The position numbers and the translations under genes were made by a program. Positions 4,230 through 56,226 of a stretch of DNA of 64,000 bases are shown one piece after another. The notes under the pieces were generated by a model. The model saw only the letters and a list, made by a program, of their open reading frames with translations. It did no database searches and was not told the DNA's origin. Source of the stretch: Corallococcus sp. EGB (GTDB lineage Bacteria; Myxococcota; Myxococcia; Myxococcales; Myxococcaceae); contig NZ_CP079946.1 in NCBI RefSeq assembly GCF_019968905.1, positions 5,601,356 through 5,665,355 on the forward strand. The letters are read 5' to 3'. Position 1 is the first letter of the stretch; each line of letters starts with the position of its first letter.

Positions 4230-4364
4230 GCAGTAACCGCGCGTTCTGACCACGCACGACCCCCACGGCGCGGTGCGTGATCCACGCATTGGGGCTCCCT
4301 CTCCGTCGCCATCCATGGGGGCCTCGGAGTAGCGTGCGGTCCTCTCCACGGAAGAGGGGGGCCC

Positions 4365-19633: not shown

Positions 19634-19729
19634 GGGGAACGGTGCTCCGAACGAACGGGGACACGGGACTCCGCCATCCCTCGGGACGGGATGGACGGAG
19701 CGGAGGCGCTGCGACTGTGACTGCGGCTG

Positions 19730-20842: not shown

Positions 20843-20857
20843 GGCGGGTTGCGTCCC

Positions 20858-22768: not shown

Positions 22769-23017
22769 GGAAGACGAGGCCGGAGGCAGTCAGGGGAAGG
22801 AAGGGGAGCAGGTGTCCACACGCGCGGGCCCACACGACCCACCGTTCCCGACGCCGCCACCCTTCCGCCACGCGGAGAGGGTGAGGTCCGGGAAGGGTTG
22901 GGAGGAGAACACCTCATCGGTTCGAACTGACCACATTATGAGAGTCCGCGCAATTCGTGGACAGCAGATCACACCGGGGAAATCGCGCGGAGTGGTCGCG
23001 TGACTCAGGGCGTCGGA

Positions 23018-40500: not shown

Positions 40501-41860
40501 TGATGAAGAGGCTGCGGCGCGTCTCGCCCGAGAGCCGGTACACCGGCACCGAGCGCGAGACGCCCTTCAGCTTCGCGTCCTCCACGAACTCGGTGGCGAA
40601 GCCGCCCTGCTGTGATCTCGCCTGGGTGTGGGAGCACAGGTGCACGCCGCCCTGGCGTCCGCCGTGCGTCATCAGGCGCGCGGCGATGTTCACCACCTCG
40701 CCCAGCGCCGAGTACCCCTTGCGCGTGGGCGAGCCCATGTCCCCGCAGTAGGCGTGGCCGGTGGCGATGCCGATCTGCAGCTCATCCAGGAAGGGGAACT
40801 GCTCGCGGGCCTTGAGCAGCTTGCAGGCCAGCCGGCACGCCAGCACCTCCTTGTTCTGCTGGGCGGTGGGCGCGCCGAAGAGGACGTAGAGCACGTTGCC
40901 CTTGTCCGTGAAGTCCGTCATCAGCAGCACGCCGCCGTGGTGGGCGCTCTCGCGCTGGACGTATTCGTAATAGGCGTTGAGGTCGCGGGTGAAGGCGTCC
41001 GGATCCGCGTCCGCCCGCGCGTGCGTGAAGCGCACGAAGAAGCAGGTGACGTCGCGGAAGTCGCCCGCGAACTCCTGGTGCGCGGTGGTGATCTTCGTGA
41101 AGAGCACCGGGTGCAGGAGCAGCGCGCACCGGCCCACCAACTCCGCTCCGCCCGTGGGCGCGGGCAGCGGGCGCCTCACCGACTCCAGCCGCGCGTCCGC
41201 CGCCAGCCGGTGGTTGCCGCCCTCGCGGGGCTCGCCCCTGCGCACGGCCTCCGGCAGGGCCGCCCAGGCGCGGGGGCTCAGCACGACCTCCGACACGGCG
41301 GCCTGCTTCTCCGCGGCCACCGCCTGCGCCAGCGGCTCGCCCACGAGCGCCGGGTGCATCCACAGGCCGGTGGCGCCCATCACGATGCGCGTGGCCTCAC
41401 CGAACCCGATGCCGATGCGCGACGACACGCCGAAGCGCTGCCCCAACAGCTCCAGCCGGGCGAAGCGCGCGAGCCTGCGCTGCACGTGCAGCGCGCACAC
41501 CGCCGCGCGCTGCACCACGTCCGCGTCCGCCTCCTCGGGCTCGGCCTCGAAGCACGCGAGGATGGAGTCGCCGGCGAACTGGTAGATGTCCCCGCCGTGG
41601 TCTCGGACCACGTCGATCATCTCCGTGTAGTAGTTCGTCAGCAGGCGCTGGAGCGCGTCGATGCCGCGTGGCCCCGCGCCGCTCAGCCCCACCACGATGG
41701 GCGTGAAGCCCGCGATGTCCAGGAGCAGGATGGCGCCCCGCACGCCTTCGGTCCGAGGCAGCGCGTCCGCCTCGTGGCGCTGGAGCCGCGCGAGGATGGC
41801 CGCCGGCATGTAGGGCGCCAGCATCGCGACGGCGGGATCGATGGGCTGCGGGGAGGACAT
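37568..41860 (-). CDS. adenylate/guanylate cyclase domain protein with a central AAA/NB-ARC-like ATPase and C-terminal TPR array
   Basis: Two class-III cyclase-like domains (ILLLDIAGFT...; FFVRFTHARA...GDMGSPTR), Walker A GEAGIGKS, a long TPR/helical C-terminus; about 1430 aa. Confidence 0.8.
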   Translation of the reverse strand: MSSPQPIDPAVAMLAPYMPAAILARLQRHEADALPRTEGVRGAILLLDIAGFTPIVVGLSGAGPRGIDALQRLLTNYYTEMIDVVRDHGGDIYQFAGDSILACFEAEPEEADADVVQRAAVCALHVQRRLARFARLELLGQRFGVSSRIGIGFGEATRIVMGATGLWMHPALVGEPLAQAVAAEKQAAVSEVVLSPRAWAALPEAVRRGEPREGGNHRLAADARLESVRRPLPAPTGGAELVGRCALLLHPVLFTKITTAHQEFAGDFRDVTCFFVRFTHARADADPDAFTRDLNAYYEYVQRESAHHGGVLLMTDFTDKGNVLYVLFGAPTAQQNKEVLACRLACKLLKAREQFPFLDELQIGIATGHAYCGDMGSPTRKGYSALGEVVNIAARLMTHGGRQGGVHLCSHTQARSQQGGFATEFVEDAKLKGVSRSVPVYRLSGETRRSLFIKGRGDIIGRGRELDMLRESLDAAFAGQGRVCMVSGEAGIGKSRLGARVLEDAEEGGARALYGVCYSYEAFTPFFPWKEVLLQAFGLLDSDDTEAQLTRLRQGLDGLEDVGPEWIPVVAGILGMSLEETSTTARMDARRRQQKVFQIVFQLLEKLSRSQPVLLFFEDLHWADYISLDLLQYVAGRVGSHRIMVLATMRPGEQLKGLRELPEFRPVDLVSLDDADTRALLRVHLRLSPPDVALEDRLLAKVQGNPFFIESIVEGLAEQGYLGPVEPGASRMELKRGLQDLLLPDSIQDVVLSRIDLLSETEKLVVKVASVIGRIFTLDGVAALVPTLGHRVLREAMDTLQRLGLILLETEEPYTCLFKHIVIRDVAYNTLLVSAREDLHRRLARYLEVRASDNLAGSAGLLAFHFLAGNVEDKGLEYTLMAARSARAQYANDDALYHYNRGLELLGTVVPVDPEVTLLQTRRVMQELAETLLQAGHYANAILMFEQCLVDEEEVQRQAELHLGLGRAHQEKGESALATQHLEKSLVLRGRSLPGSLPALGLRTLANLLLRGLASLLPFILRPLPAARLGNYLQQLSTLNSLIRIYYFADITKLTWATLVSTNMAERSRNDYAISLARGYYGTLLFGAGLLKRARYHCEKALEYARRSKDPVAEGLALSRLGIQAFFANELQRAREFQEEAVSTLRQVGERWERQTSLMMQATGEFLHSRFRAAVALYEQMGAIGEELNALMHQGWAHSWAPMCRYLLGEGDVGELCAELEQGLRISVEVADLANQCASLNHLANVTVREHQVEEAALVAVRCFKSIWSYQVMVPFLQVGLVDAAEAALFALEEGATVVPRRKLSRIVRLSCIKARLIARLYPYLKGPALRVTARSLALRKGPKAAEPVFLEAIAVLERSPNRWETGVAYFDAAVALPHRREAFLARARAIFTEVEARAELRRMDRFESTLRAPPSPAFAPPPARDARVM

Positions 41861-41877
41861 CCTCGGGGGCTTTCCGC

Positions 41878-42279
41878 TCAGGCCAGGTTGGCGTAGCGCA
41901 GGTAGAGGGCGCCCAGGCACATGACGCCGTAGAGGGGGATCTCCGCCGTCTCCAGCCAGGGCTGCTGCTTCATCACCGCGCCCCAGATGTGCACCGCCGT
42001 CATGATGCCGCCAATGAGGCCGATGAGCTCGAAGATGACCAGGTGGCTCTTGGGGTCCGGGATGAACTGCACCACCGCGATGATGACGGACAGCGCCAGG
42101 CCGCCCAGGCAGCGCGCGAAGTAGACCGTCAGGTCATTGTTGCCCGTGGGCAGCTCCCACCCGAACCACCGCGCCCAGCGCAGCGGCATGAACATCAGCG
42201 GCAGCGCGTAGACGACCAGGAAGACCGAGGTGGAGACCGCGAGGAACCAGCTGGCCAGCGGATAGTCGGGGTTGATCAT
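41878..42279 (-). CDS. small membrane protein (about 133 aa, 4 TM)
   Basis: Sense-like C-terminal part of ORF 41878..42534 from MINPDYPLASWFLAVSTSVFLVVYALPLMF...; 17 bp upstream of the cyclase gene start. Confidence 0.45.
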   Translation of the reverse strand: MINPDYPLASWFLAVSTSVFLVVYALPLMFMPLRWARWFGWELPTGNNDLTVYFARCLGGLALSVIIAVVQFIPDPKSHLVIFELIGLIGGIMTAVHIWGAVMKQQPWLETAEIPLYGVMCLGALYLRYANLA

Positions 42280-42415: not shown

Positions 42416-42946
42416 CTAGCGCGTGGCGGCGAGGAGGAACTCGGCCACCCGCTCCAGGGAGGTGGTGCGCTCGGCCTCGGCCGGGAAGCGCCGGAACACC
42501 TCCGGTGGCCCGTGCAGGATGAGCGGCTTGCCATAGCGCAGCGCCAGGACGGCCTCCGCGACGGTGCCGGCCCCTCCGGGCAGCGCCACCAGCGCGTGCG
42601 GCGTCAGCACGTTGATGTGGTTGCGGCTCATGGGGTCCGTGCCCTGCTCCCCGCTGAGCGGCAGGTGCGTGTAGATGGGGATCTCGATGTCCGTGTTCGG
42701 GTAGCCGGGCCGGGGCTGGTAGCGGCCGTCCGCCCCCACGGTGCCGGGGATGATGCCGATGGCCGCCCCCCGCCGTCCCTCCACCTGCACGAAGGCCCCC
42801 GCCGCGGCGCTCATGACGCCGCCGCCCGCGCCGGTGAGCAGGTCGAAGCCGGCCTCGGCGATCCACCGCGCCAGGGGAACGACCCACTCCTCGTGTGTCG
42901 CCCTGCCGGAGCCGAACACTCCGATGATGCGGCGGTGTCTGCGCAT
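42416..42946 (-). CDS. LOG/TIGR00725 family Rossmann-fold protein (lysine-decarboxylase-like)
   Basis: GVFGSGR...GGGVM...PGGAGT motifs typical of TIGR00725/LOG proteins; 176 aa. Confidence 0.65.
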   Translation of the reverse strand: MRRHRRIIGVFGSGRATHEEWVVPLARWIAEAGFDLLTGAGGGVMSAAAGAFVQVEGRRGAAIGIIPGTVGADGRYQPRPGYPNTDIEIPIYTHLPLSGEQGTDPMSRNHINVLTPHALVALPGGAGTVAEAVLALRYGKPLILHGPPEVFRRFPAEAERTTSLERVAEFLLAATR

Positions 42947-43189
42947 GACTGCGTCCTCCACGAAAGACCGGAACTACGTGTGCCCCTGTTCCATGCGAAT
43001 GCCCGGCCAACGCGGCAAGGGATCACGAACCTCCGGGCGTCCCCGCTCCCGTCCACCCGTGGAAGGTGCGTGACGCGAGCGTCACCTGACCGTCGCTTCC
43101 CTCCGCCCGGGGCGCCAGACGCGGGCTGCACGACCCGTGATGTCGGACCCCTCCTCTACCTTCGGCACAACCAAGCGAGGAGGCCGCCC

Positions 43190-43903: not shown

Positions 43904-43974
43904 GCCGCATGCCTTCCGGGCAGGAGAGCCGCCCTGTCCCAGGGCGGCTCCCAACCCGTGTCATTCCGTCCGGC

Positions 43975-46900
43975 TCAGGGCACGTCCAGCGCGACGCCCT
44001 GGCCGGGCACGGCCATCACCCAGCGGACGACGTCCGGCTTGCCGCCGCAGGTGACGCGCACCTCGAACTCGCGCCCCGCGGGCATCTGGCTGGACAGCGG
44101 CGTCTGGCCCTCCAGCACCTGCGAGCCCAGTGACACGCGGCACCCCTGGGCGCCGGTGACGCTGAGCGTGCCCCGGGCATCCGCCTGGGGCGCGGCGTCC
44201 GCGAGCGTGCGCAGGTCGATGTGCTCTGACTTGGGCACCTTGCCGAAGCGGTGCAGCTTGCCGTCCACCGCGGTGGAGACGAGCCAGCCCGAGGGGTCCT
44301 CCGGCAGACCGGAGTTCGGATCCAGCAGGACGCCGGACAGGTAGACGCGCTCGCCCTCCTGGGCGTTGCGCACCTCCACACCGCCCTTGGGCAGGAGGAA
44401 CACCAGCGCGAGCCCCGCGAGCACCAGGCCCACACCGCCCACGATGAGCCCCTTGCGCTGACCGGGCGTGAGCCCCTTCCCGCCCGCCGTGGCGGCGGGG
44501 GCCTGGGCCGTGGACGCCACCGCGTGGACGGGGGCCGGCGGCGCGGCCACGGGCGCCACCGGAGGGCGCACGGGCGTCGCGATGGGGGTCACCGGCGGGA
44601 GCGGCGGAGCGGCCACGGGCTGCGGCGGAGCGGCCCCCGGCGGAGGATAGGCCGCGTGGGTGCCCGTCGGCGGCGGCGAAGGGGTCCCCGGCTGAGGCGC
44701 GGGAGGCGCCGCGTATTGCGCGTGGGTGCCGCCAGGCTGCACGGACATGGCCGCGGGGGGCGGCGGCGGAGGGGCCGAGGTCAGGGGCGCGACGGAGGGC
44801 ACCGACACCGACGGACGCTGCGGCGGAGGCCCCACGCGCGTGGGCACGTTGGCGGAGGCGGCCGGCCGCACGGCGGTGGGCGGCGGCAGCGACGACCCGG
44901 GCGCGGGCGCGGCCGGGCGCGAGGGACGCTGCGCGGGCGCGGCCACGGGCGGCGCGGCCGGGGGACGCGTGGGGTCGGCGACGGAGACGACCTCCGTGCC
45001 ACGGTCGGCGGGCTCCGGCGGAGCGGCCACCGGGGGCGGCTCCATCCGGGGCATGCTGCCGGAACCGCCACGCGCGGGCGGCCGGGACAGGTCCGACGGG
45101 GCCCGCATGTCGCTGCCCGAGCCCGAGCCCGTCCCCAGGTTGCGCGAGTGCGAGCCCGTCCCCGGCATCAGCGCACGGGGGTTGGAGCCCGTCCCCGAGC
45201 CGGAGATGGACGACGGCGCGTACTCGGTGAGCCGGTCGCCCAGCGCCTCCTTGAAGAACTGCGCCACCGACGCGGGCGACGAGGACAGCCGGTGGTGCGC
45301 GATGACGGCTTCAATCTCCTCGCGCATCGCCGCGGCGGAGGGCGTGCGCCGCGCCGGGTCCTTCACCAGCGCGCGCAGGATGAGGTCCGACACGTCCTGC
45401 GGAATGTGGGGCCGCAGCTGCGAGGGCACCGGCGCGGGCTCGCGCACGATGGCCGCGAGCGTCGCCGCGTCGTGGTCCCGGCGGAAGGGCAGCTGGCCGG
45501 TGAGCAGCTCGAAGAGCACCACGCCCAGCGCGAACACGTCGTTGCGCCAGTCCAGCGGGCGGCCGCTGGCGGCCTCCGGGGAGAGGTACGAAATCTTTCC
45601 CTTGATGACGCCCGCCTGCGTGTGCTCCTCGCCCTGCACCTTGGCGATGCCGAAGTCCGACAGCTTGATGGCGCCGTCCAGCGACACCAGCACGTTGTGG
45701 GGACTGACGTCGCGGTGCACCACCGGGTGCGCCGTGCCGGACGGGTCCACGTAGCTGTGCGCGTAATGCAGGCCCGCGGCCACCTCCGCCACGATGCGCA
45801 GCGCGTGCTCCAGCGGCAGCGCCATGCCCTTGCGGCGCAGCTCCGTGATGAGGCGCTTGAGGTCCGGGCCGCGCACGTACTCCATCAGGATGTACGCCAC
45901 GCCGTCCGTCACGCCCACGTCGAAGGTCTGGACGACGTTGGGGTGCGTGAGGCGCGCGTTGGCGCGGGCCTCCGCGAAGAGCATGTCGACGAACTCAGGA
46001 TTCTCCGCGAACTGCGCGAGAATCTTCTTCATCACCACGAACTTCTCGAAGCCCTTCACGCCCTGCTGCTTGGCGAGGAAGACCTCCGCCATGCCGCCCT
46101 GCCCCAGCCGGCGGATGATCTGCAGCCGCGCGCCGCCGCTGTGCGTGTCCGTGGGCGACGTGCCCCGGGCGCCGGGGTCCTGGTTGGTGGAGCCGAAGAG
46201 GTACTGGCTGAGCGCGCGCTGCTCCAGCGCCTCGATGTCGTCCAGCGGCTTGTCGGTGAGGGGCGTGCGCGCGAGCAGCCCCTGGAACTGCGCGAGCGCC
46301 GGGGCCCGGGCGGTGCCGCCGCAGACGGGGCACACGCGCTCCATGGTGCCCTTGGCGCGAAGGACCTCCAGGTACTCGGAGGTCTGGATGCGCTGGTGGG
46401 TGACCTGGCCGCAGTTGCGGCAGTCGCACGGCAGCCACAGCGTGGCCAGCTTCGCCGGGAGCGCCTTGGTGGACTTCGCCAGGACGCTCAGGAGCGGCGG
46501 CGGCACGCGGCAGAGGACCACCTGGGCGCCCTGGGACGCGACCTCCAGCACCTGTTCGATGCGCGGCAGCGCCTCCGGCTCCACCACGCTCACGTGGCAG
46601 CAGTCGAAGGCGACGCGCCCCTCCAGGCCGGACGCCAGCCGGCGCACGTTGAGGTCGCCCTTGAGCGTGCTGGCCAGGGTGATGAAGGTGATGTCGTCCT
46701 GGATGATCTTCAGGTGCGACGCGAGCTCGGACGGCTCTGACGGGATGCCCGAGCGCAGGTAGCGCAGCACCGCCGGGTCCACCGCGGAGAACTGCTGGCG
46801 GCGCGCGAAGTCGAAGAACTCCGTGGGCTCGTCCGCGAACTCCAGCGGCTGGGCGCACACCGGGCACTGGTGCGGCGGGGCTCCGCCCTGCTCCAGCACC

Positions 46901-47283
46901 TTCGCCTCCTCCACCAGGCGCACCAGCCGCAGCCGGTCCTCCTTGCAGAAGCGGCACGTGTACGGCGCCAGCATGGAGAGCACGCGCGCGACGCCCGCGA
47001 AGCCCTCCACCATGTTGAGCTGATCCACCACCACCGGCGGCGCGTTGACGACGTACAGCCCCGACACGCCCTGCGGCGGGTGGCCGGCGAACTCGATCCA
47101 CCGGCGCACGCCGAAGGAGCTGATGCGCTCCACCAGGCCCAGGTCCACCACCACCAGGCCCTGGAGGCCCTTGGAGGTGGACGTGAGGGGGAAGGTTTCG
47201 TCGATCACCCCGGCCACGCGCACGTGGGTCAGACTGCCCACGCGCAGGGAGGTGATGCTGGCATTGGAAGTTTGGCTCTCCAC
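43975..47283 (-). CDS. Ser/Thr protein kinase fused to two N-terminal STAS (anti-sigma-antagonist-like) domains and zinc ribbons; Pro-rich linker, one TM helix, C-terminal extracytoplasmic domain
   Basis: STAS-like SLRVGSLTHVRVAGVIDETF and a second copy; CxxC pairs (CRFCKED...CPVCAQ; CDCRNCGQ...CPVCGG); kinase motifs GQGGMAEVFLAK, HRDVSPHNVLV, DFGIAK; about 230 aa Pro/Ala-rich region; TM LIVGGVGLVLAGLALVFLL. Start taken as GTG (VESQTSNASITSL) after gagggtagg; the ORF's ATG at 47364 is also possible. Confidence 0.75.
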   Translation of the reverse strand: MESQTSNASITSLRVGSLTHVRVAGVIDETFPLTSTSKGLQGLVVVDLGLVERISSFGVRRWIEFAGHPPQGVSGLYVVNAPPVVVDQLNMVEGFAGVARVLSMLAPYTCRFCKEDRLRLVRLVEEAKVLEQGGAPPHQCPVCAQPLEFADEPTEFFDFARRQQFSAVDPAVLRYLRSGIPSEPSELASHLKIIQDDITFITLASTLKGDLNVRRLASGLEGRVAFDCCHVSVVEPEALPRIEQVLEVASQGAQVVLCRVPPPLLSVLAKSTKALPAKLATLWLPCDCRNCGQVTHQRIQTSEYLEVLRAKGTMERVCPVCGGTARAPALAQFQGLLARTPLTDKPLDDIEALEQRALSQYLFGSTNQDPGARGTSPTDTHSGGARLQIIRRLGQGGMAEVFLAKQQGVKGFEKFVVMKKILAQFAENPEFVDMLFAEARANARLTHPNVVQTFDVGVTDGVAYILMEYVRGPDLKRLITELRRKGMALPLEHALRIVAEVAAGLHYAHSYVDPSGTAHPVVHRDVSPHNVLVSLDGAIKLSDFGIAKVQGEEHTQAGVIKGKISYLSPEAASGRPLDWRNDVFALGVVLFELLTGQLPFRRDHDAATLAAIVREPAPVPSQLRPHIPQDVSDLILRALVKDPARRTPSAAAMREEIEAVIAHHRLSSSPASVAQFFKEALGDRLTEYAPSSISGSGTGSNPRALMPGTGSHSRNLGTGSGSGSDMRAPSDLSRPPARGGSGSMPRMEPPPVAAPPEPADRGTEVVSVADPTRPPAAPPVAAPAQRPSRPAAPAPGSSLPPPTAVRPAASANVPTRVGPPPQRPSVSVPSVAPLTSAPPPPPPAAMSVQPGGTHAQYAAPPAPQPGTPSPPPTGTHAAYPPPGAAPPQPVAAPPLPPVTPIATPVRPPVAPVAAPPAPVHAVASTAQAPAATAGGKGLTPGQRKGLIVGGVGLVLAGLALVFLLPKGGVEVRNAQEGERVYLSGVLLDPNSGLPEDPSGWLVSTAVDGKLHRFGKVPKSEHIDLRTLADAAPQADARGTLSVTGAQGCRVSLGSQVLEGQTPLSSQMPAGREFEVRVTCGGKPDVVRWVMAVPGQGVALDVP

Positions 47284-47287
47284 CCGC

Positions 47288-48130
47288 CTACCCTCGTTCC
47301 AGACAGAACAGCAGCGACTTGGGCTGCGCGGCCCGGCGGCGCGCATCCCCCAGGTCCACCCCACAGGTGAACTGGGTCCGCTTCCCCGGGGTCACCCGCA
47401 CGGCGACCGCGTCGCTGTGCTCCAGGATGCGCCGCAGCCCCAGGCCCGCGCCACCCCCCGAGGCATCCACCTGCGCCTTCTCACCCCACGCCCTCACCAC
47501 CCGCACCAGCGGTGACACCGGCATGCGGCCGAAGCGATCCGTTGCCTCCAGCCACGCGCGGCCCTCCACCACCGCCCAGGACAAAAGGCAGCGGTCCTCC
47601 TCCTCCACCGCCTGCACCTGCCCCCGCCGGTGGGCGTACTTCGGCTCGCCGCTTCCGTCCACCGGAGCGTCGAGCAGGGCGTTCACGCCAATCTCATGGA
47701 CGACATCCGCCACCCGGCCGGCCGCGCCCTTGGAGCCGCCGGCCTGGAGGACGGCCTCCGCCACGCGCTCGCCCACGGCCGTCACCTCCGCCACGCTGCC
47801 CAGCCACGTGACGGACGTGGCGGCCTCCTGCGGAATCATGGGCTCGCCGCGCAAGAGCGCGCTCAAGAGGCGCGCCTCCCAGGCGGACGGCTGGCCCCCC
47901 TCGCGGGTGGCCAGGAGCAGCGCTGGGGGCCTGCGCTCCAGGAGCGCGGCGTGGGCGGGGGTGAACCGCCCGTCGAACAGCACCAGGTGCGGTGCCGCGT
48001 CGTCTCCCTTCCCCAACTGCAGGCCATCACGGGCCAGCACCCCGGAGGCCTTCTCCAGCGCCTCCGGCGTGAGCGTCGTGTCCGGCGTCAACTTCAGGGG
48101 AGCATCCTTCACGGCGGCAGCGGTTTCCAA
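47288..48130 (-). CDS. GHKL-type ATPase (RsbW/anti-sigma-kinase-like) with a degenerate receiver-like N-terminal domain
   Basis: C-terminal HEIGVNALLDA...DASGGGAGLGLRRIL (N-box, G2-box-like); ends 4 nt before the kinase gene start. Confidence 0.55.
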   Translation of the reverse strand: METAAAVKDAPLKLTPDTTLTPEALEKASGVLARDGLQLGKGDDAAPHLVLFDGRFTPAHAALLERRPPALLLATREGGQPSAWEARLLSALLRGEPMIPQEAATSVTWLGSVAEVTAVGERVAEAVLQAGGSKGAAGRVADVVHEIGVNALLDAPVDGSGEPKYAHRRGQVQAVEEEDRCLLSWAVVEGRAWLEATDRFGRMPVSPLVRVVRAWGEKAQVDASGGGAGLGLRRILEHSDAVAVRVTPGKRTQFTCGVDLGDARRRAAQPKSLLFCLERG

Positions 48131-48138
48131 ACAAGGCC

Positions 48139-50745
48139 CTAGTAGTGGAGCCGGACTTCGGTGAAGACGCCCAGCGGCGGGGCGGGGAAGCCGTGGGACT
48201 CCTCGTACTTCGCGTTGAAGAGGTTGGTACCCAACAGGGACACCGCCACGCGCTCGTGGACGTTGAAGCCCACGCGCGCGGTCGCGGTGATGTAGCTGGG
48301 CAGCTTCACGCGGGTGGTGGTGCCGGCGTTCTCATCCACCACGAAGCCCGGATCATACCGTGCGCCCACGAACAGGCCGTAGAGCTCCACGAAGGCGAAC
48401 TTGCCGATGTTGGTGCGGCCGCGCAGGTACACGCGGTGGCTGGGCGCGTAGTCCAGCGGGTAGCTGGCCCCGCCGCCCACCGGCAACGCCTGGGCGTCCA
48501 GGAACTGGTAGGCCACGTCGAAGGACGAGTTGAGGGACGGCACCTGCGCCGCGGCCTCCGCCTCGAAGCCCGCCACGCGCGCGTCGCCCAGGTTCTGGAA
48601 CTGCGAGGTGGAGCCGAAGAGGAGCTCCTGGTTGATGAAGTTCCGGGCGCGGTTGTAGAAGCCCGTGCCCGTCAGGCGCACCTTGCGGTCGAAGGGCCAG
48701 AAGTCCACGGCCGCCTCCACCGTGTCCAGCGTCTCCGCGCGCAGCGCCGGGTTGCCCAGCAGCGTCGCGGCGTACATCTGCTGGTTGATGGCCAGCTCCG
48801 CCAGCGTGGGCGCGCGGAAGGCGCGGCCGTAGTTGGTGCGCAGCGTGAGCAGCTCCGGGATGGCGTGGAACACGACGCTGGCGCGAGGGGAGATCTGATC
48901 CGTGCGCTCCGACCAGACCTTGGAGGGGATCTGGTAGTTGTCGTACCGGGCGCCGCCGCCCACCACCAGCCGGTCCGTGATGCGGTACTCCGCGTCCACG
49001 AAGCCGCCCAGGATGGTCTGCTTCGTGTCGTCCAGGGTCAGGCCGGGGAGGACGTTCTGGTTGTTGACCTGGTCGGCCTTGATGTCGCCGCCCACGGTGA
49101 CGGACAGCTTGTCCAGGGAGAACAGCGCGCGCGCCTCGCCGCCCAGGCGGCTGCGCTTGCCGAGCGTGTCCTCCAGCGCGCCGGTGATCTCGTTCTCCAG
49201 CGTCACGTTGCGGCGCTTGAAGAACGCGTAGCCCTGGGCGAACACGCGCACGTTGTCCGTCACCTGCTGATCCAGCTGCAGGGCGGCGTTGAGGTTCTGG
49301 ACGTGCTCGTTGTCCTGCGCGGTGTAGTGGCAGCGGCCGCAGTTGCCCACGGTGGAGATGTTCTGACCGCCGGGCCGGCCGATGTTGCCGTCGGTGAAGT
49401 CCGCGTCCAGCGCAAGGGGGCCCACGCGGACCTTGCCGTTCACCTGGTGGACCAGCGAGTCCTCGTTGGTGTCCGTCTGGTTGAGCTGCGGGTTGTTGAA
49501 GAGCTGCGGGCCGTCCGAGCCGAACCCGTAGTAGCCGAGCAGCGCCTCCACCGGGCCGCCGCGGCCGGCGACGTTGGTCTGCAGGCGCCAGGTCTTGTCC
49601 TGGCCCGCGAGGATGCGCGCGTCCGCGCCCACGTTCTGGCCCTTGGCGATGAGATCGCCGGGCTGGCGCTCGATGATGTTGATGACGCCGCTGAAGGCGT
49701 TGGAGCCGTAGAGCGACGAACCCGGGCCGCGAATCACCTCCACCTGCTTCAGGTTGGTGAGCGGCGTCGTCTCATCCGCGTAGAACTGGCCCGTCCAGGG
49801 GTCCGTCAGGGGACGGCCGTCCTTGAGGAGCAGGAGCCGGTTGGACAGGTAGTTGGAGCCCAGGCCGCGCGCGCTCACCGCCGCCTTGCGCATGGAGCCC
49901 CGGCGGCACTCCATGCCCGGGAAGTACTGGATGGCCTCGCAGAGCGAGAACTGGCCGGTGCCCTCCAGCTCCTCCGCCGGAATCCAGGACACCGTGAGGG
50001 GCACGTCGGAGATGCGCTGGCTGCGCTTGGAGGCCGTGGTGACGACGGCCTCGCTCAGCGCCATGTTGATGTTCTTCTCCAGGTCGTCGCCTCCGCCCAG
50101 GTCCGGGCCGTCCAGGCCGGAGAGGCTGGAGGGCGGCGGCAGCGCGCGGTCCGGGGTGGGCTCCGTGAAGGGCGCGCGGTCCGGGACGTTGGTCGCCGCG
50201 CGCGGCTGCGACGACGGCAGCACCGCGCCGGAGCCCAGCGCGGGCGGCGGGTTGGAAGGAACGTCGGTGGTCAGCGGCCCGTCATAGGGCGACGTGGGCG
50301 AGGCCACGGGCAGCGGATCCGACACGGACGGGCCGGGGCCGGCCAGCGGGGGCGGAGGCGGCGTGTGCGCCGGCTCGTTGGCGAGCGCGGGCTCCTGCGG
50401 CTGGGTGGGCGCCTCGTCCGGAATGAACTCCGGCTCCACCGGCGGAGGCGGCGTCTTCGCGCCCCGGCGCGTCTTCGCGGCGCGCGGCGGCTTCGCCCCC
50501 GGAGTCGCCGTCTTCGCGCCCGGGGAGGTGGCCGCCTTCGCGCCCGGGGGGGTGGCCGCGCGTTTGCGGGCCGTCTTGGTCCGCGTCTTGGAGGCGGGCT
50601 CCTGGGCCTCCTGGGCCCGGGCCGTCTCCAGCGTGAACAGGGACAGCGCGCAGACCACCAGGGTAAGGCATGCGCGCGCGCTCAGCCGCCCGGCAAACCC
50701 CTTCACCGCGTTGGTGCGCGGCCCACCGTACTCAGTCGAGTCCAT
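48139..50745 (-). CDS. TonB-dependent outer-membrane receptor with a long Pro/Ala/Lys-rich N-terminal extension
   Basis: Signal peptide, then about 200 aa of low-complexity sequence (AKAATSPGAKTATPGAKPP...), plug (EVIRGPGSSLYGSNAFSGVINII), beta-barrel and a C-terminal aromatic strand VRLHY. Contains a CGRCH motif. Confidence 0.8.
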   Translation of the reverse strand: MDSTEYGGPRTNAVKGFAGRLSARACLTLVVCALSLFTLETARAQEAQEPASKTRTKTARKRAATPPGAKAATSPGAKTATPGAKPPRAAKTRRGAKTPPPPVEPEFIPDEAPTQPQEPALANEPAHTPPPPPLAGPGPSVSDPLPVASPTSPYDGPLTTDVPSNPPPALGSGAVLPSSQPRAATNVPDRAPFTEPTPDRALPPPSSLSGLDGPDLGGGDDLEKNINMALSEAVVTTASKRSQRISDVPLTVSWIPAEELEGTGQFSLCEAIQYFPGMECRRGSMRKAAVSARGLGSNYLSNRLLLLKDGRPLTDPWTGQFYADETTPLTNLKQVEVIRGPGSSLYGSNAFSGVINIIERQPGDLIAKGQNVGADARILAGQDKTWRLQTNVAGRGGPVEALLGYYGFGSDGPQLFNNPQLNQTDTNEDSLVHQVNGKVRVGPLALDADFTDGNIGRPGGQNISTVGNCGRCHYTAQDNEHVQNLNAALQLDQQVTDNVRVFAQGYAFFKRRNVTLENEITGALEDTLGKRSRLGGEARALFSLDKLSVTVGGDIKADQVNNQNVLPGLTLDDTKQTILGGFVDAEYRITDRLVVGGGARYDNYQIPSKVWSERTDQISPRASVVFHAIPELLTLRTNYGRAFRAPTLAELAINQQMYAATLLGNPALRAETLDTVEAAVDFWPFDRKVRLTGTGFYNRARNFINQELLFGSTSQFQNLGDARVAGFEAEAAAQVPSLNSSFDVAYQFLDAQALPVGGGASYPLDYAPSHRVYLRGRTNIGKFAFVELYGLFVGARYDPGFVVDENAGTTTRVKLPSYITATARVGFNVHERVAVSLLGTNLFNAKYEESHGFPAPPLGVFTEVRLHY

Positions 50746-50981
50746 CGTTCTCAATTCCACGAGGGGGAAGCAGGGATGTCCGCGGTCCTTGCGCCAGGAG
50801 CCAGAGCCGGTGCGACTGGCAATCGCTCAGGGGGTCGAGTTTCCACCCCTGAACGATGGCGTTCCGCTCGACTTCTCAAATTACCGCAATAACTCGCCTT
50901 AGGCCAAGTCATGGCTGTCGATCGCGGCAAAACACGCGCACGGCGACGGGAGCGCCGTGCGCTGATCAGCCCACGGCGCAA

Positions 50982-51908
50982 TCAGTCATCCGGCTGTTCA
51001 GCGGAGACGGACAGGTCGTCCGCGAACGGAGGCAGCGCGGGACCCAGCGAGTCGGACCGCACCAGGACGGGCGTCTCCACCCGCAGGTCGGGCGCGTCCG
51101 CGAGGACGGGCTGACGGCGCGGGGGCCCCTGGGTGACGAGCTTGCGGAAGTCCTCGAACTCGTGGCCCTGGATGCGGGCGAAGGCGTCGAACGGAGCGAC
51201 CGCACCGACGGAGGACAGGGACTGGGACAACGCGTCCGCCCCGCCCTTCACCTCCACCAGCACGGCGCCGGGCACCCGGGCGCTCTTGAAGAGGACGCGC
51301 AGGTCCTTGGGCACGTGCGAGACGGGCACGAGCGCGGCCTCCGCGCCCTTGGCCTCCAGCATCTTCACGGCCGACTCCACGTTGGGCACCGGCACCAGCT
51401 TGAAGTGCTTCTGGGCATCCAGGTCGCCGCCCAGCACGACGTGGGTGACGAACTTGGGATCCGCGGGACCCGCGCCCTTGACCACCGCCAGCCGCTTGCC
51501 GGCGAGGTCCTTCACGCTGCCCTTCTGGCTGGAGATGATGGCCCAGCGCTGCTGCGTCTCACCGGCGCGCGGCGCGTACGCCACGGGCTGCGCCTTGGCG
51601 CCCAGTTGCACCGCGGCCCAGCCGTCCACCACGGCGAAGTCGATCTGCCCCTCCCCCACCGCCTTGGCGAAGTCCTCGTAGCGGCCGAAGCTCTTGCCGG
51701 TGACGGGGCGGCCCAGGCTGGCCTCCAGCTTCTGGGCGAGCGCTTCCGCGTACTGGAAGCGCTCCTGGCCGTCCGACAGCGTGGTGGCGAGGAACACCCC
51801 CAGCGTGGCCTTCTTCGGCGCGGCGGACGCGGGGCGGGCAACGACGACGGCGAACAACACGGCGGCGAGCAGGACGCTCCACCGCGCGACAAGGGATGGC
51901 GTCTTCAC
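50982..51908 (-). CDS. periplasmic substrate-binding protein, PhnD/SsuA-like (phosphonate/phosphite ABC-type)
   Basis: Signal peptide MKTPSLVARWSVLLAAVLFAVVVARPASA; PBP type-2 fold features; the start overlaps the TPR gene stop (ATGA). Confidence 0.6.
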   Translation of the reverse strand: MKTPSLVARWSVLLAAVLFAVVVARPASAAPKKATLGVFLATTLSDGQERFQYAEALAQKLEASLGRPVTGKSFGRYEDFAKAVGEGQIDFAVVDGWAAVQLGAKAQPVAYAPRAGETQQRWAIISSQKGSVKDLAGKRLAVVKGAGPADPKFVTHVVLGGDLDAQKHFKLVPVPNVESAVKMLEAKGAEAALVPVSHVPKDLRVLFKSARVPGAVLVEVKGGADALSQSLSSVGAVAPFDAFARIQGHEFEDFRKLVTQGPPRRQPVLADAPDLRVETPVLVRSDSLGPALPPFADDLSVSAEQPDD

Positions 51909-54418
51909 GGCGTCTCCTCCGCGACCCCGGTGGCCGGCGTGGCGCCCTGCGCGTCACCCAGTCCATAGAGGCCCTGCAGGCGGTCCTTCCATTCACGCAC
52001 CTGGGCGGCGCGGGCTCCCGAGGCGGACACCAGGTAGCGCCGCCATGCGTCCACGGCCTCGGCGGGCTCGTGCCGGCGCTCCTGCGCGTCGATGCCCAGG
52101 TTGAGCGAGGCGATGGGCACGGACGTCTCCAGGCGCTTCCACGTGGCCAGCGCCGACGCGGTGTCACCCTGGCGCCAGTCCACGCACGCCAGGTTGTGCT
52201 GCACCACCGCGTCGTCGGGCGTCGCGGCGAGCGCGGCCTTCAGCGCCTTCTCCGACGCCTTCATGTTGCCGGAGGCGTAGGCGAGGGCGGCCTCGCGCCG
52301 CAGCAGCGCGCCGGTGAAGTGACCCATCCACTTCGGCTGTCCGGGCATGGGCTTCTTCTGGGCGGTGGCGAGCAGCTTGCGCGCGGGCGCCACCTTGCCC
52401 TGGCGGTAGAGGACATACGCGTCCGCGAGCGTGCGCGTGTTGGGCCACGCCCACTCCGGCGCCGGGGTGAGGGCGCGCTTGAGCCCCGCGGTGGCCTCCG
52501 CGAACCGCCCCTCCTCCGCGCGCGTGAGCGCCCGCGCGAAGGTGGCCAGCTTCGCCAGGTCCGAGCCCTTGCCGGTGCCCAGGCGGTCCACGGCGTCCAG
52601 GTCCCGGTTCGCCGCGGCGGCGTCGCCCACCTCCAGCTTCGCCAGGGCGCGGCGCACGAGCACGCGGGGCAGGTTCGCCTCCGCCACCTTCGCGGCCGTC
52701 TTGGAGGGGCCCGCGTCCGTCAGCCGCTGCACGGCGGCGTCCACCTGGCCCAGCTCCACCTCCGCGAGCGCGGCGCCCGCGGACGCCTCCGCGCGCTGAT
52801 CCGGCTCCTGCGTGGCCTCACCGGACTGGGTGAAGGCGGCGAGCGCGGCCTGCGCGTCGCCGCTGCCCAGCCGCGCGTAGCCCAGGAGCAGGTGCTCGCG
52901 CCAGGTCGCGCCCGGCAGCGTCACCGCGCCCTCCATCACCTTGCGGGCCTCCGCGTACTGGTGGCTGTCCAGCAGCGCCGCGCCCAGCCGCCGGGCCATG
53001 GGCACGGAGCGGTCCAGGTCATACGCGCGGCGCAGGTCGCGCACGGCGTCATCCAGGCGCTGCGTGCCGGCGCGCTCCCTCGCGCGGTGGGCCAGCGCCT
53101 GCGCCAGCCACTGCTTCGCGCCGGGGTGGCCCGGTTCGACCTGGAGCGCGCTGCCATAGTCCTCGATGGACTGATCCCACTGGCCGGTGGCGAAGTGATC
53201 CGCGCCCAGCAGCATCCAGCCCAGCGCCTGGCGCGGGGCCATCTCCACCACGCGCCGGTGCACCTCCACCGCGCGCTGGAAGCGGCCGGCGCGGCGGTTG
53301 ACGGAGCCCAGCGTCGCCCACAGCTCCAGGCTGCCGCCGCCCGACTTCACCGCGGACTCCAGGAACTGGATGGCCTCCTCGTGGCGGGACTGCGCCTGGA
53401 GCGCCTTGCCCACGGCGATCTGCCCCATCAGCAGGCCCGGCTGCAGCTCCAGCACCTTGCGGAACTCGGCCTCCGCCTGCGCGGGCTGCTTCTGCGCGAG
53501 CCGCACGTCGCCGAGCAGCAGGTGCGCGGCGGGCGTGGCGCCCAGCTTCATCAGGGCCGTGGCCTGGATGTCCGCGCGCGGCACGTCGCCCGCGGCGAGG
53601 TACAGGCGCGCGAGGCGCTCCTTCGGCTCCGCCACCTGCGGGAACTTCGTCACCAGCCGCTCGAGGAGCGCGCGGGCCTCCGCCACCTGCCCCTCCAGCT
53701 CCAGCACGGCCGCGAGGCCGATCTGCGCGGTCGCGGACTCCGCCCGGCCGGCCTGCGCCTTCTCGAACGAGGCGCGCGCGGCGCCAGCATCCCGGCGCAG
53801 GAGGTGCGCCTTGCCCAGCAGCTCGTGGATCTGGAAGTCGTTGGCCGCGAGCTTCTCCGGGCGCAGCGCCAGGTAGCGCTGCAGCCGCGTCACGGCCCGG
53901 TTCCCGTCCTGGGCGTACAGGTAGTAGCTGGCCAGGTAGTAGTGGACGATGAGGTGGTCCGGCTGATCCGCCGCGGCCACCTGCTCCAGCACCGGGACGG
54001 CCTCCTGGAAGCGGCGCAGCTTGAAGTACGCGGTGCCCAGCGGGTACGCGAGCGCCAGGTCCTGCGGGTTCTGCGCGAACACGGGCTGAAGGCGCGCGGC
54101 CGTGCGCTGGAAGTCCTGGAGCGCGTTGGCGGCGCTGCCCAGGCCCGCGGCGGCGGAGACGGACTGCGGCTCCTGGGTGAGCGCCTGCTCGAAGAGGTTG
54201 AGCGCCTTCTTGAACTTCTCCTCCGCCTCCTTCTTGTCGCCCTTGGCGGCGGCGGCGTTGGCGGACACGAGCGCCTGTTCACCCTGCTCCGTCATGCGCT
54301 GCGCCTCGGTGGCGGGCGGCGGGCGGAACTGGGCGAGCGCCGTCGGCGGGCCGGCCAGGGTGGCCAGCAGGACGAGCGCGGTGGAGACGCGGCGCGGGGA
54401 ACGGATGAATGGGCGCAT
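51905..54418 (-). CDS. secreted TPR-repeat protein
   Basis: Signal peptide STALVLLATLAGPPTALAQ; about 800 aa of TPR-like helical repeats rich in A/L/E/R. Confidence 0.7.
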   Translation of the reverse strand: MRPFIRSPRRVSTALVLLATLAGPPTALAQFRPPPATEAQRMTEQGEQALVSANAAAAKGDKKEAEEKFKKALNLFEQALTQEPQSVSAAAGLGSAANALQDFQRTAARLQPVFAQNPQDLALAYPLGTAYFKLRRFQEAVPVLEQVAAADQPDHLIVHYYLASYYLYAQDGNRAVTRLQRYLALRPEKLAANDFQIHELLGKAHLLRRDAGAARASFEKAQAGRAESATAQIGLAAVLELEGQVAEARALLERLVTKFPQVAEPKERLARLYLAAGDVPRADIQATALMKLGATPAAHLLLGDVRLAQKQPAQAEAEFRKVLELQPGLLMGQIAVGKALQAQSRHEEAIQFLESAVKSGGGSLELWATLGSVNRRAGRFQRAVEVHRRVVEMAPRQALGWMLLGADHFATGQWDQSIEDYGSALQVEPGHPGAKQWLAQALAHRARERAGTQRLDDAVRDLRRAYDLDRSVPMARRLGAALLDSHQYAEARKVMEGAVTLPGATWREHLLLGYARLGSGDAQAALAAFTQSGEATQEPDQRAEASAGAALAEVELGQVDAAVQRLTDAGPSKTAAKVAEANLPRVLVRRALAKLEVGDAAAANRDLDAVDRLGTGKGSDLAKLATFARALTRAEEGRFAEATAGLKRALTPAPEWAWPNTRTLADAYVLYRQGKVAPARKLLATAQKKPMPGQPKWMGHFTGALLRREAALAYASGNMKASEKALKAALAATPDDAVVQHNLACVDWRQGDTASALATWKRLETSVPIASLNLGIDAQERRHEPAEAVDAWRRYLVSASGARAAQVREWKDRLQGLYGLGDAQGATPATGVAEETP

Positions 54419-54426
54419 GCGGTTCG

Positions 54427-56226
54427 TCACGGCGTGGGGGCGGAGCTGAATTCGGCGACGATGACGGTGATGTCGTCGCGCTGGGGCTGGCCGGCGCTGT
54501 ACGCGCGCACGTCCGCGAGGAGTGCGTCGCGCAAGGCGTCGGCGGGGAGGTGGGCGTGGGCCTGGATGGCGGCGGCCAGCCGCTGCGTGCCGTAGAGGCG
54601 GTTGGCGCCGTCGCGCGCCTCGGTGAGGCCGTCCGTGTACCAGACGATGATGTCGCCGGGGCTCAGCTGCGTCTGGCGCGACGTGAACTGCGAGGCCACG
54701 TTCGCGCCCAGCAGCGGACCGCGCGCGGGCAGCGACGCCATCTGCCGCGTGTTCCGGTTGTAGACGGCCGCCGCCGGGTGCGCGCCCGCCGCGTAGTCAA
54801 TCTGGCCGCTGTACACGTCGATGACCGCGAGCGCGCTGGACATCTGGTGCTCGCCGCGGCCCACGTTGGCCAGCGTCACGTTGAGCGCGGTGATCAGCAT
54901 CTGCGCGTGCACCTGCGACGGCTCGCGCAGCGTCATGGCGGAGGCGAAGCCGCTGGTGGCGCTGGTGGCGACCAGCGACGTGGACAGACCGTGGCCCGTC
55001 ACGTCCCCGATGCCGATGACCACCCGCCGGTCGTCCAGCGCGGCGCGGAACCACCAGTCACCGCCGCACGCGTCCGCGGGCACCACGAGCCCGGCCAGCC
55101 GCAGCGGCCCCACCGTCACGGCCTCGCGGCCCGGCAAGAGCGTCTCCTGCACCGTGCGCGCGAGCGACACCTCGCGCTCCAGCTGCGCCTTGGCGCGCAC
55201 GTCCTCCAGCAGGACCTTGATGCGCTCGGCCATGTGGTTGAACACCACGCCCAGCGTCGTCACCTCGCGGCCCGCGCCCGGAGCGGTGCCCGCGCGAGCG
55301 CCCAGGTCACCGGCGGCCAGCTGCATCACGCGGTGGGTGAGCACGCCCAGCGGCTTGGTGATGCGGCGGCTCTGGAAGGCGGCCAGCACGCCGGCCAGCA
55401 CCACGAAGCCCACGCCCAATCCGACGATGCGCAGCGTGTTGGCGCGCACGGCGGCGCGGTTGGTCTCCTCCAGTTCGTGCAGCTGCTTCTGCAGGTCCTC
55501 CAGCGAGTAGCTGATCACGACCACGCCCTTGCCGCCCTGCGAGCCGTAGTCGAGCGGCTCCTGGAACTCGAAGACCGGCTGGCCCTGGAAGAAGGCGCTG
55601 GCCCAGCGGCGCTCCGCGGTGCGGCCTCCGGAGGACTCGCCCAGCCTGGCGTTGGGGTCGCTGTCCGCCACCAGCTGCCCGTCCGCGTCGTACATCTGCA
55701 CGCGCAGGATGTTGCGGTTGTCCGCGATGATGGAGCGCGCCACTTCCGTGAGGAACGCGTAGTTGTTGTCGCGAAGGCTGGTGGCGGAGGTGAGCGCCAG
55801 CGTGTGGCTCACCGTCTGGCCCAGTTCGCGCGCCTGGGACTGGAGCCGCTGGGTGAAGCGGTCCGACGTCGCGGTGAGCTGCGCCTCCGTCGTCTTCGCG
55901 GACAGCGCGGCCAGCAGGCCCACGATGATGATGACCAGCGCGCCCGTGGTGAGCAGCAGCAGCTGATCCAACCGCATCCCGCGGATGGCCGCCACGTTGG
56001 GCAGCTCTCCCGCCTCCATGGGCGCGATGACCGTGCTCGTGGGCTCCGTGGGCGGCAGCCCCAGCGCTCCGGTCAGCCGGGTCGCCGTGCTCTCCCCACG
56101 CAGCGCGGTGAGCTCCCGCGAATGCGTCCCGGTGTACTCCGGTGGAGGAGGCGGGGTGCCGGGCGCCGCGTCGGGCGCATCAGGAGATTCGGGTACGGGG
56201 TCGAGGCGCGGATTCGTACGGGACAA
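54427..56226 (-). CDS. membrane-bound PP2C-family (SpoIIE/RsbU-like) Ser phosphatase with periplasmic sensor and HAMP domains
   Basis: TM1 LLLLTTGALVIIIVGLLAAL, periplasmic region, TM2 IVGLGVGFVVLAGVLAAF, HAMP-like segment; PP2C motifs GGDWWF, IGDVTGHG, DGLTEA. Confidence 0.8.
   Translation of the reverse strand: MSRTNPRLDPVPESPDAPDAAPGTPPPPPEYTGTHSRELTALRGESTATRLTGALGLPPTEPTSTVIAPMEAGELPNVAAIRGMRLDQLLLLTTGALVIIIVGLLAALSAKTTEAQLTATSDRFTQRLQSQARELGQTVSHTLALTSATSLRDNNYAFLTEVARSIIADNRNILRVQMYDADGQLVADSDPNARLGESSGGRTAERRWASAFFQGQPVFEFQEPLDYGSQGGKGVVVISYSLEDLQKQLHELEETNRAAVRANTLRIVGLGVGFVVLAGVLAAFQSRRITKPLGVLTHRVMQLAAGDLGARAGTAPGAGREVTTLGVVFNHMAERIKVLLEDVRAKAQLEREVSLARTVQETLLPGREAVTVGPLRLAGLVVPADACGGDWWFRAALDDRRVVIGIGDVTGHGLSTSLVATSATSGFASAMTLREPSQVHAQMLITALNVTLANVGRGEHQMSSALAVIDVYSGQIDYAAGAHPAAAVYNRNTRQMASLPARGPLLGANVASQFTSRQTQLSPGDIIVWYTDGLTEARDGANRLYGTQRLAAAIQAHAHLPADALRDALLADVRAYSAGQPQRDDITVIVAEFSSAPTP

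Follow-up and report, generated by a model that had tools for sequence, protein, structure and literature searches.

What does a partner-switching module control when no sigma factor accompanies it? The question is raised by six minus-strand genes at positions 43975-56226 of a 64,000-nucleotide (nt) stretch of the Corallococcus sp. EGB genome (contig NZ_CP079946.1, positions 5,601,356 to 5,665,355; hereafter the window), in which an earlier note, made from the sequence alone, had recognised a membrane PP2C phosphatase, an RsbW-like ATPase and STAS domains fused to a Ser/Thr kinase. How the Hanks-type kinases of myxobacteria, about a hundred in number, are switched is mostly unknown. We lean towards a reading in which a partner-switch-type phospho-module acts on a STAS domain built into the membrane Ser/Thr kinase itself, and not on a free anti-sigma antagonist. 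The six genes, in order of transcription and with their counterparts in the Myxococcus xanthus cluster MXAN_4557-4562, are the following.

54427-56226, minus strand: HAMP-PP2C (SpoIIE-family) membrane phosphatase, 599 amino acids (aa); MXAN_4562
51905-54430, minus strand: periplasmic TPR protein, 841 aa, matching TPR Pfam families
50982-51908, minus strand: PhnD/SsuA-fold periplasmic binding protein, 308 aa, matching Pfam Phosphonate-bd
48139-50760, minus strand: TonB-dependent receptor, 873 aa; MXAN_4559
47288-48130, minus strand: 280-aa receiver-like plus GHKL protein; MXAN_4558
43975-47283, minus strand: receptor-type Hanks Ser/Thr kinase, 1102 aa; presumably MXAN_4557

The GC content at third codon positions in the coding frame is 0.90-0.96 for these open reading frames (ORFs; genome 70% GC), and all six therefore carry the signature of real genes. 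The kinase starts at a GTG at 47283 rather than at 47364 as in the ORF list, and the NCBI start of the 280-aa gene is probably the GTG at 48112, which would give 274 aa.

The N-terminal part of the kinase holds the putative phospho-acceptor, and its parts are laid out as follows.

46990-47262, minus strand: STAS1
47116-47118, minus strand: codon of the invariant Ser56 in STAS1
46846-46977, minus strand: zinc ribbon 1
46480-46713, minus strand: STAS2
46303-46443, minus strand: zinc ribbon 2
45325-46122, minus strand: kinase domain, with a Pro-rich linker after it
44392-44448, minus strand: predicted transmembrane (TM) helix
43978-44391, minus strand: predicted extracytoplasmic domain

The STAS_2 match in the Corallococcus kinase itself is sub-threshold (22.7 bits vs a gathering score of 29.2), and a profile of the N terminus run against PDB sequences returned weak zinc-finger and chance matches only and no STAS, so that the evidence for STAS came from orthologue scans and fold comparison. 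Both confirmed the assignment, and the best structural matches of the predicted STAS model come from the RsbU/V/W and SpoIIE/SpoIIAA/SpoIIAB systems. Word-indexed homologue searches with the same N terminus yielded 8 proteins, then 14, none of them a full-length orthologue, and the AlphaFold2 (AF2) alignment of this region was therefore shallow. The two STAS plus zinc-ribbon units align to each other (hhalign probability 98.6%, E 8e-16) and all eight Cys of the two Cys4 ribbons are invariant. The dual arrangement described in the earlier note is thus borne out as far as two STAS domains and two ribbons go, while a conserved candidate phospho-Ser is found in STAS1 only. There, the motif D47-x5-R-[IVM]-[STN]-S56-[FYC]-G-[VI]-R-x-W persists in sequences with as little as 29% identity, and Ser56 stands where the predicted helix alpha2 (57-68, model numbering) makes its first turn, ten residues past a conserved Asp; STAS1 is in this respect a STAS domain with a conserved Ser at the N terminus of helix alpha2. 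This is the site phosphorylated in SpoIIAA and RsbV, and the spacing from Asp to Ser56 is that of Ser58 in SpoIIAA. STAS2 carries Glu-Pro where STAS1 has Ser56 and is for that reason not phosphorylatable at this site.

The remainder of the protein is a Ser/Thr kinase, as first described: Pkinase scores 143 bits, above its gathering score, and the Gly loop GQGGMAEV, VVMK, HRD, the catalytic-loop Asn and DFG are all present. The catalytic loop reads HRDVSPHN in 48/51 orthologues (among loci L001-L061), with Ser in the place of the Lys of the Hanks HRDxKxxN and a His two positions later (window positions 45700-45725). Hydropathy alone gives one TM helix (residues 946-964) followed by a 138-aa C-terminal domain, and the predicted topology is that of a receptor-type kinase with an extracytoplasmic tail.

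The enzyme that would phosphorylate STAS1 is the 280-aa protein encoded directly upstream. Its predicted domains and motifs are the following.

47831-48100, minus strand: receiver-like N-domain, a small alpha/beta domain
47291-47818, minus strand: Bergerat (GHKL) C-domain of RsbW/SpoIIAB/SiaB type
47669-47695, minus strand: N box
47528-47539, minus strand: G1 box
47438-47458, minus strand: G2 box
47315-47341, minus strand: RRR..PKS motif

Searches of Pfam and NCBIfam gave no match to this protein even at E<=10, HATPase_c_2 included, and a profile of 38 homologues run against all PDB sequences returned a chance nanobody match only. The AF2 model built from the family alignment is confident, with a predicted local distance difference test score (pLDDT) of 88.6 and a predicted template modelling score (pTM) of 0.88, and the structures closest to it, SpoIIAB, UsfX and RsbW, all belong to anti-sigma factors. 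Invariant in the 38 homologues are Glu146 and Asn150 of the N box, Asp198-x-x-Gly201 of G1 and GGGAGLG of G2, together with RRR..PKS near the C terminus, which is specific to the family. The family has the RsbW/SpoIIAB-type Bergerat fold with its N, G1 and G2 boxes, and the C-terminal domain, as modelled, is of the RsbW/SpoIIAB/SiaB type with intact ATP-binding and catalytic motifs. Since the family does not conserve the acceptor-like Asp53, we rejected the idea that the N-domain is a functional receiver; the domain, which is short, would be a pseudo-receiver at best.

An exhaustive HMMER search with the GHKL family profile found 1943 clusters at 50% identity, 39 of them at <=1e-30, and the orthologous group is therefore the tip of a large unannotated family. 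Some distant members reach the Pfam HATPase_c_2 gathering score (P0224, for example, at 27.5 bits), by which the sequence link of the 280-aa protein is closed transitively. Named members are few, come from deltaproteobacterial metagenome-assembled genomes (MAGs) and are annotated as hypothetical; this looks like a large uncharted RsbW-like kinase family in the 'Deltaproteobacteria'/Myxococcota. Some members are 550-650 aa long, and one has a C-terminal PilZ domain (among P0135-P0280, e.g. P0218, P0224). The RsbW-like ATPase of the earlier note is thus upheld by structure, motif conservation and the transitive link. That note had staked its reading on profile searches, which the STAS and GHKL domains of these proteins formally fail; this outcome is overturned by structure prediction, orthologue scans and motif conservation.

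The phosphatase that would oppose the GHKL protein has the following parts.

55906-55962, minus strand: TM helix 1, by hydropathy only
55435-55905, minus strand: periplasmic domain
55378-55434, minus strand: TM helix 2, by hydropathy only
55219-55371, minus strand: HAMP domain (Pfam)
54448-55035, minus strand: PP2C domain (Pfam)

Its assignment as a membrane PP2C phosphatase stands, with Pfam SpoIIE at 134.8 bits and HAMP at 37.1 bits, both above their gathering scores. The metal-binding motifs GGDWW, GDVTGHG, TDGLTE and RDDITV are intact and invariant across 15 orthologues. The best NCBIfam match is SiaA (NF038263, E 1.3e-24), which covers the HAMP and PP2C part only, and the protein does not reach SiaA equivalog status (86.8 bits vs a cut-off of 700). 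The conserved 157-residue segment between the two TM helices gives weak sCache_4/SMP_2 (single-Cache/YtjB-type) matches in 6/15 orthologues, and the periplasmic domain is probably Cache-like. The M. xanthus counterpart, MXAN_4562, is the sole SpoIIE-type phosphatase of that species (PMC2887360); it is neither Pph1 nor Pph2.

In order to see how far these genes belong together, we scanned genomes with the GHKL family, one genome per species, which gave 61 loci. All six genes keep their order and orientation in 38 of the 61, which span Corallococcus, Myxococcus, Pyxidicoccus, Citreicoccus, Archangium, Hyalangium and Vitiosangium, and the remaining loci are mostly interrupted by contig ends. Dispersal of the genes in related genomes, which would have spoken against the earlier note, was not what we observed. 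One locus, L037 (BNCN01000007.1, labelled Comamonas sp. KCTC 72670), holds a full Myxococcus-type six-gene cluster at 55-75% protein identity; for this assembly, a wrong label or myxobacterial contamination is probable.

An independent metagenome scan with the kinase N terminus as query added 19 loci. For adjacency of the pair, a locus was considered if it had 700 nt or more of DNA ahead of the STAS(-kinase) gene, and the GHKL gene had to end within 400 nt on the same strand. A GHKL-family gene lies just upstream of the STAS(-kinase) gene in 65/68 of these, including loci found via the kinase. The pair is recognisable even at L062, where a remote 693-aa kinase is preceded by a 310-aa gene matching the GHKL family (hhalign probability 99.4%). 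At L080 (244-1751) and L081, the gene immediately downstream of a GHKL-family gene encodes a free STAS plus zinc-ribbon protein of 156 aa, with no kinase fused; the GHKL-family protein of L080 has 344 aa, and the free STAS-zinc-ribbon protein keeps the invariant Ser. This unfused pair is ancestor-like, being the arrangement expected of an unfused ancestor.

The linkage of the PP2C gene to the GHKL-kinase pair is looser than that of the pair itself, but deep. L078 retains PP2C, TPR, PhnD-fold, GHKL and kinase genes at 26-40% identity, without the receptor, and at L056 a HAMP-PP2C gene lies directly upstream of the GHKL-kinase pair. At L049 (4361-13885), a 1391-aa HAMP-HisKA-HATPase-4xREC-SpoIIE protein and an SBP_bac_8 binding protein precede the GHKL and STAS-kinase genes; the place of the HAMP-PP2C sensor seems to be taken there by a two-component phosphorelay.

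From fold, conserved residues and conserved linkage, we infer each step of the following mechanism. The GHKL protein would bind STAS1 and phosphorylate Ser56, and the membrane PP2C would strip this phosphate upon stimulation of its periplasmic domain, which is probably Cache-like, whether directly or via the co-translated periplasmic TPR and PhnD-fold proteins. The phospho-state of STAS1 would then set whether the STAS/zinc-ribbon region, or the GHKL protein bound to it, restrains the adjacent Hanks kinase, and the output would be phosphorylation of substrates by this kinase rather than release of a sigma factor. STAS2, not being phosphorylatable, could serve as a constitutive docking or dimerisation surface, the extracytoplasmic tail of the kinase may be a second input, and the TonB-dependent receptor, where present, would carry the ligand across the outer membrane. 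The resulting route, from ligand import through periplasmic sensing by the HAMP-PP2C protein and STAS phosphorylation to kinase output, is that proposed in the earlier note; it is plausible, and we infer it in its entirety.

Several points weigh against this reading. The GHKL protein has no direct match in the sequence-profile searches and, on that account, its kinase activity rests on fold and motifs. Confidence in the STAS model is moderate (pLDDT 76.6, pTM 0.52, 15 sequences). Ser replaces the catalytic-loop Lys of the kinase, the activity of which is hence not assured, and the route from STAS phosphorylation to the kinase domain is left unconstrained by the present results. As regards linkage, a GHKL-family gene is missing within 400 nt upstream in L063, L077 and L082, the first being the only full-length STAS-kinase among the three and the other two short partial matches at contig ends. 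The PP2C, TPR and PhnD-fold genes are not beside the pair in L048, L050, L053, L054 and L062, and the receptor gene is missing in several relatives. Finally, our literature search found no functional paper on MXAN_4557 or MXAN_4558.

The main rival is a partner switch of the classical kind with its target encoded elsewhere, in which the 280-aa protein would be an anti-sigma factor or anti-regulator, titrated by the membrane STAS when this is dephosphorylated, and the kinase would act in parallel or as a modulator. The identity of the structural relatives of the 280-aa protein, anti-sigma factors without exception, speaks for such a role, as does Leptospira LvrC, which shares the receiver plus Bergerat layout and has been proposed to sequester a sigma factor (PMC13269768); the invariant RRR..PKS and the extra N-terminal domain could bind a third partner. 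We nevertheless consider it unlikely. The earlier note had seen no sigma factor in the module itself, and no sigma factor, no transcription factor and no further STAS gene is found among the 29 other ORFs scanned in the 64-kb window, and no such target stood out in the related loci, which were compared only with the six cluster proteins and, in a few cases, with Pfam. Moreover, the STAS-kinase fusion persists over 26-100% identity, which speaks for the kinase as part of the output.

Whether the envelope genes belong to the same circuit depends in part on how the cluster is transcribed. The PP2C/TPR and TPR/PhnD junctions are 4-nt overlaps; overlaps and tiny gaps had been reported for the cluster and are indeed found, while the letters are GTGA and not ATGA. 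The receptor gene is separated from the 280-aa gene by 8 nt (26 nt if the GTG at 48112 is the start), and the latter from the kinase gene by 4 nt. The gap of about 220 bp noted ahead of the receptor gene measures 221 nt (50761-50981), and its middle part is AT-rich. It holds one further element.

50936-50962, minus strand: hairpin, candidate terminator or attenuator

The hairpin (read 50962-50936) lies 20 nt past the stop codon of the PhnD-like gene and consists of a 10-bp stem with 9 GC pairs and a 7-nt loop, followed by the T-rich tail GTGTTTTGCC. A hairpin is found at the equivalent position in 8/11 close relatives (L001-L011; the eight are 7 Corallococcus and one MAG), with differing stem sequences. 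The spacer between the PhnD-fold and receptor genes is kept in all genera, and in two relatives, L058 and L071, the gene triplets are divergent to each other. Because the hairpin recurs, the spacer persists and the triplets can be inverted, two adjacent three-gene units, PP2C-TPR-binding protein and receptor-GHKL-kinase, are probably a better description than one operon; of the six-gene operon initially proposed, the linkage of the genes is retained and the single transcript is not. A scan of the cluster for sigma-70 promoters gave no match, with a consensus that does not cover myxobacterial promoters. Just past the kinase stop codon, at 43905-43965 on the minus strand, there is a GC-rich inverted repeat, GGGAGCCGCCCTGGGACAGGGCGGCTCTCC, without a T-tract, which may be the terminator of the second unit.

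The TPR and PhnD-fold proteins both start with a signal-peptide-like N terminus. The TPR protein, identified as such in the earlier note, matches several TPR Pfam families above the gathering score (e.g. TPR_19 at 131 bits), and its gene still accompanies that of the PP2C protein at 40% identity (L078, L071). The binding protein matches Pfam Phosphonate-bd (PF12974) at 47 bits vs a gathering score of 27, and the PhnD-like label holds at the level of fold. It does not hold at that of the equivalog: the protein scores 27.1 bits against the TIGR03431 cut-off of 261.1, and Pfam finds no ABC permease or ATPase in the cluster beside its gene. Because of this low score and the absence of transporter genes, true PhnD identity was rejected. 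Among solved structures, the sterol-binding BstB (7t1m) comes nearest to it, at E 0.011; a BstB/BstC-like sterol system for the PhnD-fold and TPR pair was a weak lead (E 0.011 and 2.5e-4) and was dropped.

The receptor, described at the outset as an extended TonB receptor, has both a plug (Plug, 66.9 bits) and a barrel of the 22-strand type (TonB_dep_Rec_b-barrel, 148.7 bits), with a TonB-box-like EAVVTTA ahead of the plug. The extension is also real and is a linker: about 190 residues of Pro/Ala/Lys-rich low complexity (window positions 50100-50700) connect the signal peptide to the TonB box. They are poorly conserved across genera, tblastn alignments often starting at residue 140-190, and residues 1-220 have no family match at E<=10, so that there is no STN signalling domain. 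A FecA-type transducer was rejected on this ground. MXAN_4559 has been detected in outer-membrane and outer-membrane-vesicle proteomes (PMC4158809, PMC3222651).

An alternative that bears on these three genes is that they form an ordinary uptake or envelope unit which merely neighbours the signalling genes and passes no ligand signal to the PP2C. The receptor lends it some weight: it is the most dispensable gene of the cluster, missing in L078, L071, L056 and L049, it sits behind the terminator-like hairpin and the 221-nt spacer, and its N-terminal extension is of low complexity and without STN; the PhnD-fold protein, for its part, is without a known ligand or role. We hold this alternative to be improbable, since the GTGA overlaps couple translation of the TPR and PhnD-fold genes to that of the PP2C gene, both genes remain with the latter at 38-40% identity (L078), and the binding protein is unaccompanied by the permease or ATPase of an ABC transporter. 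Besides, L049 has another binding-protein family between another SpoIIE phosphatase and the GHKL-kinase pair, and in most genomes the unit closed by the GHKL and kinase genes opens with the receptor gene.

The least probable alternative has the Hanks kinase add the phosphate, either to its own STAS or to the 280-aa protein, and the PP2C take it off, with the 280-aa protein as a non-catalytic, STAS-binding nucleotide sensor: M. tuberculosis PknD, according to a reference cited in PMC2877116, phosphorylates an anti-anti-sigma homologue, and kinase and STAS domains share one polypeptide here, but the catalytic Glu, Mg-binding Asn, G1 Asp and G2 glycines are invariant, which is unexpected for a protein that only binds, and the free STAS-zinc-ribbon protein of L080 keeps its Ser beside a GHKL gene with no Hanks kinase fused to it.

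In its fullest form, the reading that we prefer would have the partner-switch pair directly gate a eukaryotic-like receptor kinase through phosphorylation of the fused STAS plus zinc-ribbon region, with outer-membrane import and a binding-protein/TPR complex as the sensory front end, and would make the 280-aa protein the founding characterised member of its GHKL family; we advance this version tentatively, as possible rather than probable.

How much of this wiring is new? The earlier note did not recognise it as a described system, and it is right in so far as our search found no paper on MXAN_4557 or MXAN_4558; partner switches without a sigma factor, STAS domains fused in cis and STAS-kinase fusions are all known. 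SiaA/B/C/D of Pseudomonas aeruginosa (PMC7647112) shares with the cluster a two-TM HAMP-PP2C membrane phosphatase, a STAS-like phospho-acceptor and an output that is an enzyme, with no sigma factor. The output there is a diguanylate cyclase, driven by SiaA/SiaB/SiaC as it likewise is in HsbR/HsbA (HsbD) and BgrU/W/V (PMC7647112), whereas here it is apparently a Hanks kinase; the cluster has neither a SiaC-type (DUF1987) acceptor nor a SiaD diguanylate cyclase, and it has additional TPR, binding-protein and TonB-receptor genes and a kinase protein with an extra N-terminal domain. With RsbU/V/W and SpoIIE/SpoIIAA/SpoIIAB of Bacillus it has in common a PP2C, a GHKL serine kinase and a STAS with Ser at the start of alpha2; it differs in that no sigma factor is present, the STAS is not free, the phosphatase is a membrane sensor and the GHKL protein falls below the HATPase_c_2 profile.

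A STAS fused in cis to the regulated enzyme is also seen in the HenR/All4160/Alr3423 system of Anabaena PCC 7120, where RsbW-like kinases phosphorylate and the PP2C phosphatase HenR dephosphorylates the STAS of a glycosyltransferase, thereby controlling the enzyme (PMC13555669). The differences are that the enzyme there is a glycosyltransferase, that its STAS is single and without a zinc ribbon, and that the abstract neither presents the genes as one conserved cluster nor mentions envelope components. LvrC (PDB 9qih; PMC13269768) is alike in its receiver plus Bergerat layout and differs in having a canonical receiver phosphorylated by LvrB, in place of which there is here a short N-domain with an unconserved D53. 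In Sorangium cellulosum, fusion of anti-anti-sigma (COG1366) domains to eukaryotic-like kinases was remarked in 2010 (PMC2887360); it was only remarked there, with no mechanism, and the STAS of MXAN_4557, the GHKL nature of MXAN_4558 and the cluster went unrecognised. The wiring is thus not categorically new: it is a member of the partner-switch family with an apparent Hanks-kinase output, a duplicated STAS plus zinc-ribbon acceptor and an envelope front end.

If the reading is true, a partner-switch kinase/phosphatase pair that gates a Hanks kinase links two systems of bacterial Ser/Thr signalling hitherto regarded as distinct, and protein kinases are added to sigma factors, diguanylate cyclases and a glycosyltransferase as known outputs of partner switches. 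The cluster would offer a conserved and genetically tractable case of a Hanks kinase apparently under partner-switch control, for which MXAN_4557-4562 of M. xanthus, including the only SpoIIE-type phosphatase, is a ready genetic system (PMC2887360). Besides, the hypothetical family of 1943 clusters, which has no Pfam or NCBIfam model, becomes assignable as putative RsbW/SiaB-type serine kinases, and STAS plus zinc ribbon emerges as a recurring unit, both kinase-fused and free.

Around the cluster, the upstream neighbour is a divergent E1 dehydrogenase pair, and downstream there follow a small unassigned ORF, a SLOG-family protein and a large cyclase-AAA-TPR protein. The last two form a signalling-type pair just downstream: a SLOG cluster4 (LOG-like) protein at 42416-42961 (minus strand) and a 1450-aa protein with adenylate/guanylate cyclase and AAA_16 ATPase domains and TPR repeats at 37568-41920 (minus strand). 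In M. xanthus, MXAN_4545-4561, which overlaps the orthologous cluster, has been tabled as a 'lantipeptide' gene cluster (PMC4902038); none of the six genes supports this label, which weak matches of the kinase domain to lanthionine-synthetase kinase domains may have caused. Elsewhere in the window, two tandem DUF4140 plus DUF4139 paralogues followed by an alpha/beta hydrolase lie at 4281-8158 (plus strand). Finally, the minus-strand genes at 18377-22789, namely a cytochrome c gene, an ORF without a Pfam match (19730-20857) and a gene for a 643-aa protein with a weak match to MtrC/MtrF-like outer-membrane cytochromes, are possibly an extracellular electron-transfer-like set.

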